Source: a virus (Duplodnaviria; Caudoviricetes). Taken from it: a DNA stretch of 64,000 bases. This document shows positions 23,109 through 54,900 of the stretch, one piece after another (the stretch's first letter is position 1; each line of letters begins with the position of its first letter). The notes below the pieces were generated by a model, which ran no database searches, was not told the DNA's origin, and saw only the letters and a list, made by a program, of their open reading frames with translations. The stretch spans positions 32,001-96,000 of the IMG/VR virus record IMGVR_UViG_3300011008_000071. One strand, given 5' to 3'. The position numbers and the translations under genes are program-made.

Positions 23109-23300
23109 CTATAGTATATTCATAATGATTAACATGATGCATGCGACCCATCGCAAAGTCTCATCACCACTCAGTATCAGTGCTAACATAATTCCTCCAT
23201 ATAATGTATATGGAATAAGGATTATCAGTGTTGCAGCAGTAATACTGAATTGAGAAGCGAAATCAATCAACAGGTCACGGGGTCTCCTTATTTGTTTCAT
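23109..23300 (-). CDS. Small membrane protein
   Basis: 63 aa, mostly hydrophobic; overlaps the primase stop (ATGA). Confidence 0.55.
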   Translation of the reverse strand: MKQIRRPRDLLIDFASQFSITAATLIILIPYTLYGGIMLALILSGDETLRWVACIMLIIMNIL

Positions 23301-24271
23301 ACATTCTTATGGGCGAGCTTGATTTCTTCCAGCTTCACTCCTACGTCCTTTCCTATAACATTCCAGCACAACGTGATCTGTTTAAACATCCACTTGTAGC
23401 CCTTTAATCGGAATATCAATTCTTTCATATCAATTCCTTTGTCGATGTAAATCCTTACAGATACATTCTTGCCTATGATACCTTTTCCTATCATGTGTTC
23501 TAGGGCGGAGATATAGTCGGAACCCAGTGCAGCAATGAATGCAGAATTCTTGGTATCATAGAAGTTCTTGTAAACGGAAAGAATATCAAAAACACCTTCT
23601 GCAATATTGATAACAATCGACTCCTGGGTGAATATATCAATCTGGGATTTGATTGTATAGAATGCCCGACCCATGCCTCTCATGATTCCCAGCTTCCTCC
23701 AGGAATGATCTTCATCTGCTGGAGTTAATCTTCGAATCATCAACGTGGTCTTATCATCTGATAAGAATGTAATGGTTTCGCCTGGGTTGGGTAATGTGTT
23801 GCGGACCTTGGCGGAATCGATATATGGAATAATTCCTCGGAAATCCCATACGATTTTGAACCTATCATAGTCTTCGAATGAGAAACCTTTTCCAAGTCGG
23901 TTTTCAATATATGCAACCTGGTTGGATGCAATTACAGGTGTTCCTATTACCAGACTTACATCCGATACCGATGTTAATGGAATCTTCCTAGAGCGGTTTG
24001 TTAATGCCAGTCGCTGTACATCTTTGCTCAGACCGAGCTTCTTCAGGAAGTACTTGTTCACAATACCATGTGCATTACACAGAAAGCAATTATAGAGCAG
24101 AGGTTCCATCGGATCATTTGAGCATTTGATGTAACAATGGCTGTCTGTTGGGTCCTTCTGACTATCCCCACAGATAGGACATCGTATCCTATATTCCACA
24201 CCGTTAACAGGTTTGCATATGGGAACGCCTTTCTGAATCTCAGAAAGGATTTCATATTTCGTTGGTTTCAT
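23297..24271 (-). CDS. DNA primase (T4 gp61-like; Zn finger + TOPRIM)
   Basis: RCPICGDS...YNCFLC; IAEGVFD, AALGS, YIDKG, KDVG. Confidence 0.85.
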   Translation of the reverse strand: MKPTKYEILSEIQKGVPICKPVNGVEYRIRCPICGDSQKDPTDSHCYIKCSNDPMEPLLYNCFLCNAHGIVNKYFLKKLGLSKDVQRLALTNRSRKIPLTSVSDVSLVIGTPVIASNQVAYIENRLGKGFSFEDYDRFKIVWDFRGIIPYIDSAKVRNTLPNPGETITFLSDDKTTLMIRRLTPADEDHSWRKLGIMRGMGRAFYTIKSQIDIFTQESIVINIAEGVFDILSVYKNFYDTKNSAFIAALGSDYISALEHMIGKGIIGKNVSVRIYIDKGIDMKELIFRLKGYKWMFKQITLCWNVIGKDVGVKLEEIKLAHKNV

Positions 24272-24322
24272 CTTTACATCCTCCTTCATCCTTGTTAAAT
24301 ACAGAATATATCATTTTAAAAT

Positions 24323-24331
24323 ATATATTAT
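24323..24331 (+). promoter_or_regulatory. Candidate phage early promoter motif ATATATTAT (representative copy)
   Basis: 12 exact and 4 variant copies, each upstream of a gene in matching orientation. Confidence 0.65.
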
Positions 24332-24438
24332 CATAGTAGATGAATTAAGGACGAATGCCAACCGAAGCAGTAATTGTCCATGGAGAGGCATACTTATTCA
24401 TTGGCAAAATTAAAAATTTTATACAGGAGGAATTTTCA

Positions 24439-25617
24439 ATGGAAACATTAGAAAAGAAAGCAGTAATCATAGGCATTGGTAACTGTGGTTCCCAGGTTGC
24501 TAATCTAGCCGAGAAGAAGTACTCTGATCTCTTCGACTGTGTTTACATCAACAGCAGTGAAGCGGATCTTGCAATGGTTCAGACACAGAGTAATCTGAAG
24601 TACAAAATCGGCGACAGAGAAAAGATAGAAGGCTCAGGTAAAGACCGCAGTAAGATGAAGGAATATCTCAGAGCAGGAGCGAAGAAGATCATCTGCGATG
24701 AGGCATTCAGAGATGTTGTTGCCAGTAAGAAATATTGCTTCGTAGTTGCATCATCTGCAGGCGGAACAGGATCTGGTTCGGCACCACTTCTGATGGAACT
24801 TCTCCGTCAACTCTTCCCTGACACGCATTTCATTCTGATTGGCGTATTACCACAGCTGGCTGCATCGCTGATGGAGCAGGGTAATACACTTGAGTTCCTG
24901 AATGAACTGTATGAGCTGTTGGGTGACGACACTACGTATATGATTTATGACAATGAGACGGTTTCCGATCTCCCGCCTACGATGGCTCTGGAGAAGGTGA
25001 ATGAATCCATCGTTGAAGATCTGAAAGTTCTTACTGGTGTTGACAACTACCCCACACCATATGAATCTATTGATGAGGCAGATATGGAACAGATCATCAC
25101 GACCCCAGGGAGGCTTCTGGTTACCAGAATCAACAAGGGACTTACGGAGAAGGCGATGGAAGACAATCGTCTGGACGAGCTCATTGTTAAATCGATCAAG
25201 AACTCCAACCACTGCGAGACGGACCGCAACAAGAAGGTTATTCGTTGCGGAATAATCACATTCTTCACGGACGAAGTTAACAGACTTTATGCTCCGAACC
25301 TGGAAGGGCTTATCAAGTTCCTCGGAACCCCGAAGGAGAGATTCAATCATAACGCGGTAAACGGCGGTCAGGAATCATTGAACTTCCTGTACATGATTGC
25401 ATCTGGTCTCTCCCCGATCAATGACAGGGCAAAGAAGATCAATGAACGCATTGAGGAACTCAAGGAGATGTTGGCAAAGGATGACACCAACAAGTATGTC
25501 CTGTCCGGGGATGTTGAAACATACTCCAGTGCCGCTGAGAGAAGGAAGATGGCTTCAAAGTCCAAGGAAGGAACAGCAATCGACACGGCTGCCATCTTCG
25601 ACAAGTTCATGAAATAA
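24439..25617 (+). CDS. Tubulin/FtsZ-family GTPase (PhuZ/TubZ-like)
   Basis: IIGIGNCGSQVA (T1), SSAGGTGSG (tubulin signature), SIDEADME (T7 loop); AGGAGG RBS before the ATG at 24439. Confidence 0.92.
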   Translation: METLEKKAVIIGIGNCGSQVANLAEKKYSDLFDCVYINSSEADLAMVQTQSNLKYKIGDREKIEGSGKDRSKMKEYLRAGAKKIICDEAFRDVVASKKYCFVVASSAGGTGSGSAPLLMELLRQLFPDTHFILIGVLPQLAASLMEQGNTLEFLNELYELLGDDTTYMIYDNETVSDLPPTMALEKVNESIVEDLKVLTGVDNYPTPYESIDEADMEQIITTPGRLLVTRINKGLTEKAMEDNRLDELIVKSIKNSNHCETDRNKKVIRCGIITFFTDEVNRLYAPNLEGLIKFLGTPKERFNHNAVNGGQESLNFLYMIASGLSPINDRAKKINERIEELKEMLAKDDTNKYVLSGDVETYSSAAERRKMASKSKEGTAIDTAAIFDKFMK

Positions 25618-25701: not shown

Positions 25702-27024
25702 ATGGCTAGTTTACCTGTCAAGGCAGTACAGGCAGTTGGAAAATGGTTAGGCGACAAGGCCCTGAAAACAATCGCCAAACCACTCGATGAAATGGTTGAT
25801 AAGAATATCACTGATATTACGACAACCATTGGCTCATTCGTCATCCGTAAGGTACGAGGAAAGTTCCAAAGATCATTAACATTCGAAGTCGGGGTTCATT
25901 ACGGCGACAATTGGATGGAAGAAGCCCTGTATGGAATTCTGTATGAGTATAACAACATCAAGAATTCCACCCAGGTTCACCTTACCAATATTCGCAAGCC
26001 CGGGAAACCTGATGACTTATATTCCACCCTCGGTGAAGGTACTCACAACATGAAGTACAGAGAGTGGAACATTCTTCTGTGTATTCAGAGCAGTACCATA
26101 GGAGGACATGGTACACCTGTTCGACATGTGACAATATACACCATCATCACGTATGATATGAATCCGAAGTTCGTCAAGATGTTCGAAGCCGACATGCGTC
26201 GTCACCGCAATGCCCTACTTCATATCAGTCCTGATTCTCCTACTCTGAATGTGTATACCGATGGTCATGAGAATGATGGTCTGACATACTGGGAATATTC
26301 GGCCCCAATTCCCAAACGCAGAATCAATACCATCTATCTCCCCAGAGAACAGCTGAAACGTATCATTGATACCATCAATGAGTTCTTCGCTAACAAGCAG
26401 TTCTATATCGATCATGGAATTCCGTGGACATTGAAGATCCTGTTCTATGGTCCAGCAGGTACAGGCAAAAGCAGTCTTGTTAAGATGATTGCTTCAGAAT
26501 GGAACCGAAATCTCTTCGAATGTTCCGGTGGTAAGATGGGCAAATTCATTCCTAACTGTCTAACAGACTATATCGAGGGAATGATTGACCCTGTTCTATC
26601 AATATCTGATGTCGATAAGTATCCAATCCTGATCAATGAAGCCGATACCAACATTGCAAACAAGGACGAGAAGCAGAGCGAAGAACAGCTTCAGTACAAG
26701 CAGATCTTCAATAAGATGATTAATGCTCTAGACGGCATTACCTCAGGCGAGAACAGAATCATCATCATGACCACGAATCACATTGAGAAGTTCTCTGAGA
26801 CATTCCTGAGACCAGGTAGAATAGATCTGATCGAAGAGATCGGCTATGTTACACCGGAAACATTCAGACGGTTCTTCCTTGATTTCTATAATATCGTCCT
26901 TCCGGAAAATATTGAACTCCGTGACGGCCCGTTGACCATTGCAGAAATGCAGAGAGACATTCTGTATTACAAGCTTGATTCAGATCAGTTCCTTGAGAAA
27001 TATCTGAAGAAAAATAAGAAGTAA
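25702..27024 (+). CDS. BCS1-like AAA+ ATPase
   Basis: Walker A GPAGTGKSS; NALDG...IIIMTTNH...LRPGRID; atypical Walker B (SISDVD). Confidence 0.85.
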   Translation: MASLPVKAVQAVGKWLGDKALKTIAKPLDEMVDKNITDITTTIGSFVIRKVRGKFQRSLTFEVGVHYGDNWMEEALYGILYEYNNIKNSTQVHLTNIRKPGKPDDLYSTLGEGTHNMKYREWNILLCIQSSTIGGHGTPVRHVTIYTIITYDMNPKFVKMFEADMRRHRNALLHISPDSPTLNVYTDGHENDGLTYWEYSAPIPKRRINTIYLPREQLKRIIDTINEFFANKQFYIDHGIPWTLKILFYGPAGTGKSSLVKMIASEWNRNLFECSGGKMGKFIPNCLTDYIEGMIDPVLSISDVDKYPILINEADTNIANKDEKQSEEQLQYKQIFNKMINALDGITSGENRIIIMTTNHIEKFSETFLRPGRIDLIEEIGYVTPETFRRFFLDFYNIVLPENIELRDGPLTIAEMQRDILYYKLDSDQFLEKYLKKNKK

Positions 27025-27033
27025 AAGATCAAA

Positions 27034-27060
27034 AATCCCGGTGGAATTTCCACCGGGATT
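27034..27060. terminator. Hairpin after the AAA ATPase gene
   Basis: AATCCCGGTGGAA-T-TTCCACCGGGATT. Confidence 0.6.
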
Positions 27061-27200
27061 ACGAATTTATTTTTGTCAAAAATGGGCAAATTTTGGTCAT
27101 TTTTGGTCAATGTCCCACACTTTGCGAAAAGTAAAATTTCCAAACACCCTCTAGCTCCCAGCTCTGGCCGAGAAAAACGGATCCCGATTTTTCAGATATA

Positions 27201-27359
27201 TATTACATGTATAGACATGTAAATGTCTGTACATGTAACTCCTTGACAGTCGTTCCATGATCGACATGGATGAGTAATCATGTATAGTCATCCATGATTA
27301 CTACAGTCATGACATAGTCATGTAATCCATGTCTATACAGACTGTCTATACATGTAATA
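27201..27359. repeat. CATG-rich element bounded by 17-bp perfect inverted repeats (candidate origin or centromere-like site)
   Basis: TATTACATGTATAGACA (27201-27217) vs TGTCTATACATGTAATA (27343-27359); 11 CATG counted inside. Confidence 0.75.
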
Positions 27360-27465
27360 ATTCTCAGTGGAGTTTTCAATTTTTGAGGGTTTTCAAATTG
27401 ACTAAAATTGAAGATAATCAACCGTGGGTAAGACGGTTGATTATCACTATATTATTCTTTTCTGA

Positions 27466-28569
27466 TTATGCCTGTAATTCTCTTTCTATTACACTTATTC
27501 TGCCCGATAATGTTATTACTTCATTCCTCAGGTTATTCAATTCAGCCAGTATCTGCTCTACAGGTAGAGATACCTGCTGATCAATCTTTGATCTCAGTTC
27601 CATCAGTTCCTGTCTGATTTCAGGTATCTCTACGTTAGCTGATGATTGTATTGATACAGGCTGTGTATTTTCTAACTGGGTGATACGGTCAAGTATGATA
27701 GAGATATCATCAGTAGAAGCTTTGCCTAACAAAACACTGTCTAAGCCTGTAATGTCTTCGACGGTTAGTTGAGGTAAATCTTCTTTTGTCAGGTTTGATA
27801 CTCCTGTAATCTGCCCAGTACTGGATACAGTCAGCTTCGTGTATATACCAGGTTTGATATCGGTCTGCATGGCATCCAGTCTGGAAAATACAGTATCTCT
27901 GATATTGTTAATATCATCAATGGATGCCATATTCAGTATCCTGGATTCTATCTTCTGTAATCTACCTGTCAACTGAGTAGGAATATCCTGCATGGTCAGT
28001 TCAGAACCGCCTGTAACTCGACCTTTGGAATCCCAGAACACCTTGCAACCATTACCGGCTATGGTAGAGAATCTATCCTCAGTCACTGTAGGAATACTTG
28101 CTTTGATCAGCTCAAGATTCTCTGCCAATCCAGATATCTTCTCAACAGGGAGTTCTGGGATATCCTCAACCAACAATGGTGAAGCGTCTATGACCAAACC
28201 ATGGTCATCGACATTCACCTTACACCCGCTAACAGCAGGAATAGATTTTTTAGTGAAAGAATCAAATGCCGACGAAATGCGGGACAATTCCGCCCGCCCG
28301 GGCAGTGATGAAATGAGGTCACGTAGTCCAGTTACCTTGTCGATTGGAATGTCAGGTATATCGGAAACGTCAAGTGGAGAACCGGCGTACACCAGCCCCG
28401 CCGCGTTGTATGCCACCTTACATGCCATTCCAGGAGATATTGGTTTCTCTGCTTTCACGGATGTTTTGGAGTCTATCTTCAGAGCTGTTAATTGTTTCTT
28501 TGCTGCCTCCAGCTCCTGCTCCAGAGTCCGTATTCTATTCTGTATATCATTGATTATTTCAGTATTCAT
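27466..28569 (-). CDS. Tail-fibre-like repeat protein with coiled-coil termini
   Basis: Four repeats of GxxxKVxxxxxGxVxxxxxLxxxDIP, plus ITGL motifs. Confidence 0.65.
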   Translation of the reverse strand: MNTEIINDIQNRIRTLEQELEAAKKQLTALKIDSKTSVKAEKPISPGMACKVAYNAAGLVYAGSPLDVSDIPDIPIDKVTGLRDLISSLPGRAELSRISSAFDSFTKKSIPAVSGCKVNVDDHGLVIDASPLLVEDIPELPVEKISGLAENLELIKASIPTVTEDRFSTIAGNGCKVFWDSKGRVTGGSELTMQDIPTQLTGRLQKIESRILNMASIDDINNIRDTVFSRLDAMQTDIKPGIYTKLTVSSTGQITGVSNLTKEDLPQLTVEDITGLDSVLLGKASTDDISIILDRITQLENTQPVSIQSSANVEIPEIRQELMELRSKIDQQVSLPVEQILAELNNLRNEVITLSGRISVIERELQA

Positions 28570-28602
28570 ATCGATCCCTCCTAAGACCAAACCTTTAATA
28601 AT

Positions 28603-41154: not shown

Positions 41155-41223
41155 CGTTTCTCCTCCTATTGAAATTATATATTCTCAACTTGTAATGAAA
41201 ATATATCATTAATAATTTGAAAG

Positions 41224-42873
41224 GTGGGAATGTTAAAAATGAAGGATGTATTTTCGCAAATGTATTTCAGTGATACACTCAAGATCAAGGTGTGTAGATC
41301 CGGCAACTATGTATACCCTGTACCGATGAAGAGTTCGTTACCGGACAAAGAATACCTGGCAACACTGGAGTACTGCAAGATCGGTATAGTAGACGAATAT
41401 ATGAATCATGTATACCTGAAACATGTGAATGATTCTGTATTTGAATATACTCCTGATAAGAGCGATCATGTTATTAGTGACATCAATCGTTGGAGGAATT
41501 CGATCAGCATTTCATTACGTCGTATATCCAGGCTTGTCGACCTTCATAAGGAACCCATGGAGTTCTATATGCAGTCGGATCACTACTCACTTCGGTTGTC
41601 ATTGATTGACGACCGTGTTGAAGGTAATTCCTTCATCGTACATATGTATCTGGCGGATGATGCGGATAAGTTCATCCAAATGTGTATGATTAGTATTGTC
41701 ACCGATAAGGAAAGAACGGCTGATGGAGCAGCAATCATGGTATATGGATCCAGTACAGCATATTTCATGTCTCCTGTACGAAAGACTGCTGAAAAGATAG
41801 CAAACGGTTACAAGTCTGCCACATTGAACGGATTGGTTGGTACTTATGAAACATATCTGATCGATTGCGTTCTCAATAAGCTCTACGAATGTATTTGGAA
41901 TAATGATAAGCAAACAATCGATTACACATATACTCCGATCGAGATGTGGATGTTCAAAATGATCATGAAAGATCTCGGGAATGAAACATGTACCCATCGG
42001 ATATTCACTTGGGCACATGAAGAGGATCTGTCCAAGGATCTCTTTCTGGATGACCAGGAGCTCCCTGAATACGCAATCATAAACACCGATAGCTTTCCAT
42101 TGGTCGATTTCTCGGAGAAGGAGTGGAAGTTCGTAGACGGTTTCTGTAAACGGAATAACCTCTTTGAAGATGCTCCAACAAACATACTTCCGTACTTTGC
42201 TCAGCCGAGATATGGTAAAGTATACAGAATGGACGTAAGTACATCCGATGACAAGAAAGTCCCGTTGACAATAACATTCAAACTCAATGAAGAAAAGCGG
42301 TATCTCAAAATGTACATCGTAGAAACTCTAGATGAAAATACATATGTGTACGCAACCGTTGACTGCTCTGATATTGATCAATACACCCATGAGAACTCTG
42401 TGCGACGTTTGAGCAAACATGTATTGTACACGAAACTCACAGCAATGAGACCAACTGTCCGGGAACTGATCCATGATTCGTCGCTGCTTCAATCCGGTAT
42501 TGATAATACATCCTCTCTAGTAGGAGAGATACTGAAACTGTTTGCAATCATGTATCATAGACCGGAACGTAGCAGAATGATCAAGTGTGTTCGGCATCAT
42601 GAAACTGTCAAACATACAAAGCACGGTATTAAGCGTGAGCAGAAAGAAACGATATGGCGAATTCTGAAACCAACCAAAGAGGCAAAAGAATATGTATCCC
42701 AAATGAGTTCAGGCAGTGCACATCGACAGGCGGAATACACTCTTGAAGAGTGGCCGCGTATTGGATACAGTTACACAACAAAGACCGGAAGAGTTGTATG
42801 GGTTCCTCCTACAACATGCAGACGGCATGAGGACCTCCTGAACAAAGACAAAGAAATCAAAATCAAATTATAA
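41224..42873 (+). CDS. Hypothetical protein
   Basis: 549-aa ORF; basic C-terminal GYSYTTKTGRVVWVPP segment. Confidence 0.75.
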   Translation: MGMLKMKDVFSQMYFSDTLKIKVCRSGNYVYPVPMKSSLPDKEYLATLEYCKIGIVDEYMNHVYLKHVNDSVFEYTPDKSDHVISDINRWRNSISISLRRISRLVDLHKEPMEFYMQSDHYSLRLSLIDDRVEGNSFIVHMYLADDADKFIQMCMISIVTDKERTADGAAIMVYGSSTAYFMSPVRKTAEKIANGYKSATLNGLVGTYETYLIDCVLNKLYECIWNNDKQTIDYTYTPIEMWMFKMIMKDLGNETCTHRIFTWAHEEDLSKDLFLDDQELPEYAIINTDSFPLVDFSEKEWKFVDGFCKRNNLFEDAPTNILPYFAQPRYGKVYRMDVSTSDDKKVPLTITFKLNEEKRYLKMYIVETLDENTYVYATVDCSDIDQYTHENSVRRLSKHVLYTKLTAMRPTVRELIHDSSLLQSGIDNTSSLVGEILKLFAIMYHRPERSRMIKCVRHHETVKHTKHGIKREQKETIWRILKPTKEAKEYVSQMSSGSAHRQAEYTLEEWPRIGYSYTTKTGRVVWVPPTTCRRHEDLLNKDKEIKIKL

Positions 42874-51643: not shown

Positions 51644-51737
51644 TATTTTTGAATATATATTCTTCTATTGAATCGAATATAATTCTATTCAATCCTAACA
51701 TAGTTCATTAACACTCGTAACAAAGGAGGAAGTTTAC

Positions 51738-54795: not shown

Positions 54796-54900
54796 ATTTA
54801 GGCCTCCTTAAATCATTTTTTTGTTTACCCATTCGGGTTCAGAATATATCATTATCTTATCGGATATTTAATATGGCCCAGGAATTCCTGGGCCATATCC

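Follow-up and report, generated by a model that had tools for sequence, protein, structure and literature searches.

Jumbo phages related to AR9 and phiKZ transcribe their genes by means of their own multisubunit polymerases. Several viral origins are tied to promoters: the primary origin of T7 consists of the phi1.1A/1.1B promoters and an AT-rich region, T4 oriF(uvsY) and oriG(34) combine a middle promoter with a downstream unwinding element and use an R-loop primer, and the palindromic origins of herpes simplex virus (HSV) and simian virus 40 (SV40) overlap early promoters. The tubC sites of pBtoxis and phage c-st are direct iterons upstream of tubR-tubZ that are bound by TubR. In the AR9 transcriptome paper, the early promoter read by the virion RNA polymerase is given as AAATATATATTAT-(6N)-G(+1) (PMC5312081), and the same early motif is found in the Staphylococcus jumbo phage MarsHill (bioRxiv 10.1101/2020.12.14.422802). 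Here, we analysed a window of 64,000 nucleotides, bases 32001-96000 of the 118,713-bp IMG/VR viral contig IMGVR_UViG_3300011008_000071 (estimated 44% complete), which is part of the genome of an AR9-like jumbo phage found in animal-gut metagenomes. The non-coding gap between the stop of its AAA ATPase gene (27024) and that of a convergent gene (27466), put at about 440 bp by the initial annotation and 441 bp by our count, carries an element in which an early-promoter-like box is joined to a compound palindrome (27201-27359). Our results show that this element is certainly under selection, dependent on structure, non-coding and tied to that box. It is a compact, strongly selected, single-copy module, in which pairing is kept while the sequence turns over completely.

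The box, TTTTTCAGATA-TATATTAC, was recognised by motif comparison on the plus strand at 27185-27206. In this clade the promoter takes the form TTTTCAAT-N-ATATATTAT, and on the contig TATATTAT, mostly after TTT(C/G)A-N-TA, stands upstream of about 24 genes that have a ribosome-binding site (RBS) and a start codon. The tubulin gene is among them, and the TATATATTAT motif in front of it was verified. In G001, a complete 292-kb relative, the extended motif TTTTCAATnATATAT has 16 matches against 1 for the reversed control. The element's TTTTTCAGATATATATTAC is the contig's own promoter consensus except at the last position (T to C). Following the AR9 geometry (box plus 6 nt), a transcript is predicted to start at 27213 with the stem-loop AGACAU-GUAA-AUGUCU (27213-27228, plus strand); the A/G at 27213/27214 fits that geometry and sits at the hairpin base. 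A hairpin with dG <= -4 lies 0-2 nt from the predicted +1 in 7 of 11 homologues and a weaker one in 3 more, and hairpins are also found at the predicted start of 7 TATATTAT sites out of the contig's 30, some 24 of which precede genes. An A-tract/T-tract inverted repeat, GAGAAAAAC...GATTTTTC, lies at about 27170-27192, and its 3' arm is the T-tract of the box.

The palindrome begins, with its left arm, within the box (TTTTTCAgATA-TATATTAC). Its outer arms, 27201-27217 and 27343-27359, are paired at 17 of 17 positions, in agreement with the perfect inverted repeat of the initial annotation. The first hairpin joins 27203-27218 to 27223-27238 (16 nt, one T-G), the central hairpins join 27265-27276 to 27285-27296 and 27273-27285 to 27290-27302, and 73% of positions are paired in the minimum free energy structure at a G+C content of 34%. 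Folded as DNA, 27190-27370 reaches -37.8 kcal/mol (z = -7.1), with none of 200 shuffles as good, and after correction for G+C no other 160-nt window of the 118.7-kb contig folds as well as the element. The G001 element ranks fourth in its genome, where the better windows are plain terminators; the best-folding window of that genome, G001:C1:290110-290160, is a 23-bp perfect AT-rich hairpin with TATACATGT that adjoins a GC-rich terminator and has no promoter associated with it. For the predicted 248-nt RNA (27213-27460) the folding energy is -76.7 kcal/mol (z = -5.5). No Rfam family reached its gathering threshold in a covariance search (best 23-26 bits against 72-175, E > 0.008), and the matches below threshold fall on terminator hairpins only.

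Conservation in relatives, a check proposed by the initial annotation, was followed through homologues of the tubulin and AAA genes (47-70% identity) taken from viral and metagenome contigs. In 11 homologues a syntenic element follows immediately after the AAA gene and keeps the same architecture: a T-rich/TATAT box, an outer stem, inner hairpins and the 3' motif TTCT-n-GGGA followed by TTTTCAAT-like T-tracts. The element is single-copy in each genome and takes the same syntenic position in all homologues. The outer stem, which begins 2-5 nt inside the end of the box, is present in 11/11 (each p <= 0.03 by shuffling), and its sequences are unrelated between homologues (ACATGTATAGACA, GTACATGTAGAT, CTTATACCT, CCTTATGA, TACGTA and others). 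The inner hairpins form a variable set spanning 75-154 nt, and T-rich tracts come after the element in most homologues.

Some relatives are without the element. L013, L014/L015 and L016-L019, which keep both tubulin and AAA, do not have it after the AAA gene, and no relocated copy was found in the primase-tubulin gaps of element-free relatives. A second complete relative, G002, has no equivalent by a fold scan and by a crude perfect-match repeat search, the latter of which missed the element of G001 too. Since element-free taxa are interspersed on the weakly resolved AAA tree, several losses are suggested. In L022 (2880-3240), whose AAA protein is 59% identical, the palindrome is replaced by a different non-coding stretch of 350 nt with several long-range complementary segments (e.g. 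GATGATATAATCATGCC...GGCATGATTATATC), which may represent a further structured RNA or something akin to an intron.

Closer strains point to selection on this DNA. Among four near-identical strains (four runs), which are from animal-gut metagenomes, 27132-27358 has 0 substitutions, compared with about 2.8% in the coding flanks (P about 0.002 and 0.0003). The sole variable part of the gap among close strains is 27068-27110, by both substitutions and indels; the changes recorded within 27061-27131 are substitutions at 27061, 27063, 27066 and 27076 and indels at 27069, 27077 and 27090. Two more diverged strain contigs retain the first 37 nt only and then have hairpins of their own, which differ from each other by two compensatory pairs (TACGAC/GTCGTA versus TGTGAC/GTCACA), so that stems covary. 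The loci L023 and L024 are 95-97% identical across the element and 79-94% in the coding flanks. Judged by these comparisons, the element is under purifying selection that is stronger than that on neighbouring coding DNA. The contigs of two low-depth runs break near 27360-27367.

The initial annotation had drawn attention to the locus for its 11 CATG sites, proposing a site possibly gated by methylation. All 11 were recovered by count, within 152 bp (27206, 27216, 27232, 27256, 27265, 27279, 27293, 27308, 27319, 27328 and 27351). At the frequency of the whole contig (4.9/kb), 0.74 would be expected in that length, giving a Poisson P(>=11) of 5e-10, or about 4e-7 corrected for all windows; over the window CATG is slightly rarer than expected (310 observed versus 394 +/- 18). 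In the scan of CATG density that had been proposed, this cluster is the densest of the contig, and the runner-up, 7 per 155 bp in contig coordinates G000:C1:116390-117560, outside the window, is an unrelated coding repeat. That region is a long coding stretch with a short periodic Cys-rich repeat (C-x3-C-like, with many TGT/TGC codons), probably a Cys-rich repeat protein; the CATG at 116.4-117.4 kb come from Ser/Thr-Cys codons. What is repeated in the gap is not CATG itself; it is a unit of about 14 nt, CATGTATAGACATG, present in about 5 copies in both orientations together with further CATG-centred palindromes. The self-complementary 8-mer TACATGTA occurs 3 times in 118.7 kb, always within the element, and the CATG spacings are irregular (9-24 bp), with no helically phased iterons.

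The 11 CATG thus come from the lineage-specific palindromic unit CATGTATAGACATG, and their excess is most likely a mere by-product of that unit in the lineage of this contig. CATG is a known target of N6-methyladenine (m6A) modification, and a cluster that is the densest of its contig could in principle serve as the GATC clusters of Escherichia coli oriC and P1 pac do. The tetranucleotide is not conserved, though: L007, with the unit CATAGTATG, has at most 2 per 160 bp across a 13-kb locus, L025 and L026 contain one at most, and in L030 the unit is TACGTA. Nor was a Dam-class methylase (PF02086) found by profile search of G000 (the contig studied here), G001 and G002, a host enzyme still being possible. 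A single match to PF01555 (N6_N4_Mtase) falls below threshold (18.8 bits versus a cut-off of 26.7) at G000:C1:31599-31748 on the minus strand, to the left of the window; it sits in a 340-aa open frame that may encode a divergent DNA methyltransferase or a ParB-methylase-like protein. The report of uracil DNA in AR9-type phages (bioRxiv 10.1101/2020.12.14.422802) can also be raised against methylation. Since CATG is missing from several homologues and no Dam-like methylase is encoded, gating by methylation is unsupported, and we consider it very improbable indeed. A palindromic unit peculiar to one lineage can, as a side effect, make a 4-mer strikingly abundant at one place, and diverged homologues tell such a side effect from a conserved architecture.

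Our tentative preference, held at somewhat short of an even chance, is that the locus is an orphan early transcription unit for a hairpin RNA. The near-consensus virion-RNA-polymerase box at 27185-27206 would be active and fire rightwards at about 27213. The transcript would form a 5' stem-loop, then a multi-branched hairpin domain made of the lineage-specific palindromic unit (CATGTATAGACATG here), carry the conserved single-stranded G-rich/U-rich 3' motif, and end at U-tracts near 27373-27384 or at a bidirectional terminator at 27413-27445. In the first minutes of infection this would yield about 165-250 nt of non-coding RNA, compact and resistant to nucleases, and the function would lie in that RNA and not in the DNA palindrome or in its being transcribed. 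A transcribed structured RNA, which the initial annotation had set against its own proposals, is now the leading reading, as a prediction, by way of the AR9-type box that it had missed. We favour it because the box belongs to the phage's own promoter class and the predicted start lies at a hairpin base in most homologues, because the unit is framed by terminators and T-tracts, and because its patchy loss agrees with an accessory function; if the predicted RNA had such a function, whether regulatory or directed against the host, repeated loss in relatives would be in keeping with it. Early promoters appear to drive non-coding genes too, since one copy in G001 precedes a tRNA gene: this promoter, canonical in form, is located at G001:C1:47298 (minus strand; locus L042), with the tRNA-like sequence (GGGCCTTTAGCTCAGCCGGTTAGAGC) about 70 nt further downstream. 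If the reading is right, the locus represents a new early non-coding RNA family of rumen/gut jumbo phages.

A terminator hairpin lies on each side of the palindrome. To its left, the tubulin-AAA operon ends in an intrinsic terminator (27034-27060, plus strand) whose 13-bp stem is 100% complementary and is followed by a T-run. The T-tract/GTCA repeats come next (27068-27110, plus strand); they were described at first as TTTTG(G)TCA-type repeats and are found as TTTTTGTCA, TTTTGGTCA and TTTTTGGTCA at 27070-27109, resembling the T-rich upstream element of the phage's early promoters (e.g. CTTTTTGGTCA-TATATTAT, contig 24751, minus strand). An invariant block upstream of the box (27132-27198, plus strand) contains, about 53 nt upstream, an ACCCTCT box at 27146-27152 that this element has in common with L005, L007 and L023/24; elsewhere on the contig ACCCTCT is not a recurrent motif. 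The AR9-type late motif AACA-N6-TA/G shows no enrichment in front of genes here, which leaves no ground for calling ACCCTCT a late promoter.

To the right, the flank is AT-rich, as first noted (27360-27412, 28% G+C), and opens with the 3' motif TTCTCAGTGGAG, a mini-hairpin (CTC-AGTG-GAG) whose loop is G-rich; TTTTCAATTTTT and GAGGGTTTTCAAATTG come after it (27361-27400, plus strand). This motif was seen in every homologue examined, and it may mark where the orphan transcript has its 3' end or is terminated. It is unique on the contig, and a single occurrence rules it out as a general terminator signal. It also resembles an RBS (Shine-Dalgarno sequence) with its spacer, as in the tubulin gene (AGGAGGAATTTTCAATG), without a conserved start codon. 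Downstream of the box there is no open reading frame (ORF), every ATG-initiated frame having at most 17 codons, and a peptide from these small ORFs or from the RBS-like motif was ruled out, as neither start codon nor frame is conserved. A terminator-like hairpin with a 13-bp stem (27413-27445, scored on both strands) terminates the convergent 374-aa gene and could be a stop for the rightward transcript as well. Beyond it is a further exact TATATTAT core (27448-27455, plus strand), which has no T-rich element before it, is oriented antisense to the 374-aa gene and may allow early antisense transcription of a late gene; in L007, too, a TATATTAT stands at the far end of the element (L007 8733).

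Several observations weigh against an RNA gene. The full TATATTAT core is found in 0/11 homologues, which have the variants TATATTAC, CATATTCT, TATATTCC, TATATACT, TATATGTT and others, and the virion RNA polymerase (RNAP) of AR9 reportedly does not tolerate at least one single deviation (PMC5312081); the box may therefore be weak or inactive. The outer stem starts upstream of the predicted start, so that an RNA would be without most of the 5' arm, and its reach into the box points to a feature of DNA or of single-stranded DNA. About 70 nt upstream of the box are likewise invariant among strains. Folding is equally good for both strands in five homologues and is thus without the G-U asymmetry expected for RNA. 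Neither the number nor the sequence of the inner hairpins is conserved, and the palindrome has no conserved seed-type loop. The 21 public runs that hold the locus, mostly animal-gut metagenomes where organism labels are given, are of DNA or unknown type, with no RNA on record, and are silent on expression. No phage protein matches the AAA protein at 60% identity or more, so there is no cultured close relative and hence no transcriptome to borrow: every tblastn match in phages was below 60%, the best listed being 33%. For the 4.2-kb region, no near-identical DNA was found among 50,697 phage records.

The objection from the core sequence may be tempered by a second promoter-like class on the same contig, (A)ATGATATATTCT(G), with the core TATATTCT instead of TATATTAT, which lies upstream of the primase gene and of at least three other genes (window 24300-24330, minus strand, for the primase; 41200-41225; 51660-51700; 54830-54860). 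Its existence suggests that core positions 7-8 may tolerate change, and it may be a separate temporal class. Six or seven of the early promoters have in addition an A(C/T)CGTATAT element exactly 25 nt before the core, for instance at window 38830, 44237 and 44986 and contig 107209 and 118542, positions some 25 nt ahead of TATATTAT cores. No counterpart of this element was found in the available part of the AR9 paper (PMC5312081).

Much of what the RNA gene leaves unexplained, namely the stem upstream of the start, the folding of two strands, the invariant 70 nt upstream and the T-tracts on two sides, is accounted for by a transcription-activated palindromic origin. The orphan early promoter would open the DNA, possibly leaving an R-loop primer, the palindrome would extrude hairpins on the displaced strand, and the AT-rich and T-tract flanks would unwind. 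We regard this as unlikely on balance, yet serious enough to keep in contention. The initial annotation had already offered a replication origin among its readings, along with a tubulin-linked segregation site and a packaging signal, and single copy, selection, the box, the AT-rich flank and the nearby primase keep that idea alive. The 335-bp block 27132-27466 is nearly invariant among strains, the DNA upstream of the promoter included; the arms of the palindrome overlap the box in 11/11 homologues, which is a DNA-level property; and the folding energy is symmetric between strands. The right flank has 28% G+C with T-tract motifs on both sides of the element, and the sequence of box, 34% G+C palindrome and 28% G+C flank has the layout of a promoter with a DNA unwinding element, by resemblance only. 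The primase gene (phrog_19847) is 3 kb away. None of these supporting features is specific.

The element lies within a broad trough of GC skew on this contig, and in G001 the global cumulative minimum, at 51.5 kb, is 2.6 kb from its element. The skew check that the initial annotation proposed thus gave a minimum close by, but one that falls exactly on the primase/tubulin divergence, at which genes change orientation, and not on the element; gene orientation confounds GC skew as evidence on an origin. Because the element is missing at its position in several relatives, and G002 yielded no equivalent by fold scan and crude repeat search, an origin here requires redundant or relocated origins. 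A recognisable initiator gene and helically phased iterons are absent. We know of no described replication origin in an AR9- or phiKZ-like jumbo phage that could serve for comparison, and a literature search likewise found none. It is conceivable, with the same reservation, that the module is the first recognisable origin of this type of phage, at which injected virion RNAP would bind an orphan early promoter built into the arm of a compound palindrome, and hairpin extrusion driven by transcription, or an R-loop, would set off DNA synthesis beside the primase-tubulin block; replication initiation in the group would then become directly testable. In a variant argued by analogy, folded RNA or single-stranded DNA would display the promoter sequence between helices and titrate the virion polymerase, as 6S RNA acts on host RNAP.

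The repeat unit also suggests an array of binding sites for a lineage-specific protein, either an operator that would shut the early promoter or a tubulin-linked, centromere-like site, with the unit of about 14 bp arranged as inverted pairs. Within each phage a short unit is reused in several hairpins (CATGTATAGACATG here, ACATGTAGTAC in L023, TACGTAGTAC in L030, CATAGTATG in L007), which a purely structural model does not require; the first palindrome of 36 bp overlaps the predicted start as an operator would, and a tubulin gene is two genes away. Against these stand the long-range outer stem and the compensatory changes, which favour pairing, and the lack of an adjacent candidate for a co-evolving DNA-binding gene, none of the neighbouring ORFs matching a DNA-binding domain in Pfam or PHROGs. 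The AAA protein is not a co-evolving reader of the palindrome, as its N-terminal domain is highly conserved across phages with unrelated palindromes, and an operator with no regulated gene downstream is hard to rationalise. The tubulin-linked segregation site of the initial annotation appears unlikely in particular, with no TubR-like gene, no direct repeats upstream of the tubulin gene, and relatives that keep tubulin and AAA without the element. Overall, a binding array seems improbable to us.

A last alternative is that the locus is a relic or domesticated palindromic mobile element, like a miniature inverted-repeat transposable element (MITE) or a palindrome-associated transposable element (PATE), or a palindrome maintained by template switching, without a dedicated function. 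Short direct repeats (TTTTCAAT-like) flank the palindrome and both copies covary between homologues, and presence is patchy. Such an element would not be expected to be single-copy and always at the same syntenic position, with no transposase nearby, a left junction that varies (TTAC, TTCT, TTCC, TATC and others) and purifying selection exceeding that on neighbouring coding DNA. The multiple copies or TnpA/TnpB and the fixed tetranucleotide that define PATEs derived from IS200/IS605 are not found here. The left-hand TTAC and right-hand TCAA are reminiscent of the end sites of IS608, a lead only; with variable junctions and no HUH gene nearby, both these IS608-like ends (TTAC...TCAA) and a likeness to the nonanucleotide of circular Rep-encoding single-stranded (CRESS) DNA viruses (ATATTAC) were set aside as coincidental. 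We hold such an origin of the locus to be quite improbable.

Among the neighbouring genes, the primase gene is on the minus strand at 23297-24289 (phrog_19847, 4e-31), followed on the plus strand by the tubulin/PhuZ-like gene at 24355-25617 (Pfam Tubulin, 8e-13) and the BCS1-like AAA ATPase gene at 25702-27024, with the convergent 374-aa ORF on the minus strand at 27466-28590 (a weak and local PHROG tail-fibre match). A strong RBS and ATG (AGGAGGAATTTTCAATG) lie at 24426-24444, about 30 codons into the annotated tubulin ORF; since homologue alignments begin at residue 32, the tubulin start is probably near 24442 rather than 24355. The AAA gene is longer in some relatives, 594-803 aa versus 440 aa (L006 7217-9412, L016/L017 2447-4858, L018/L021 2501-4813, L019 2462-4246), with a break in the similarity after residue 253, which suggests an intein or other insertion within the ATPase domain.

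Set beside described systems, the locus shares features with each and differs from each. Like tubZRC it has a tubulin-family gene near repeat-rich non-coding DNA, but its repeats are inverted and downstream of the tubulin-AAA operon, TubR is absent, and the element is lost where tubulin is kept. It resembles the Dam clusters of E. coli oriC and P1 pac in the local excess of a 4-bp palindromic methylation target; there the target is conserved, whereas here several homologues keep the architecture without CATG, and the search for a cognate methylase found none. With the early promoters of AR9/PBS1 (Bacillus) and MarsHill the box has in common the AT-rich core (TATATTA), the T-rich upstream part and a purine 6-7 nt downstream, after which comes a 5' hairpin, a feature of several other early starts on the contig too. 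It differs from them in that the last core base is C and not T, non-consensus in 11/11 homologues, in the absence of a gene downstream, and in the fusion of the candidate box to a long palindrome that partly contains it. As far as the available text of the AR9 transcriptome paper goes, it reports antisense RNAs, and neither a small non-coding RNA nor an orphan early non-coding unit (PMC5312081). As at the T7 and T4 origins, a promoter of a phage polymerase type, here a candidate one, has no coding role and is followed by DNA prone to melting or structure, with replication genes near, in a cis element of single or few copies; those origins have no compound palindrome over the promoter, and the element here is dispensable in several relatives and resembles them by sequence only. 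It also resembles single-stranded-DNA promoters and single-strand origins, namely Frpo of the F plasmid, ssoA/ssoU of rolling-circle plasmids and the ICEBs1 single-strand origin (sso; PMC4595007), non-coding imperfect palindromes of 150-330 nt with an embedded promoter, whose structure is conserved while the sequence drifts. In those elements the whole promoter is inside a stem and host RNAP acts on transferred or displaced single strands, whereas here the stem takes in only the 3' half of the box, the DNA of the phage is double-stranded, and the reading would be done by the phage's own polymerase.

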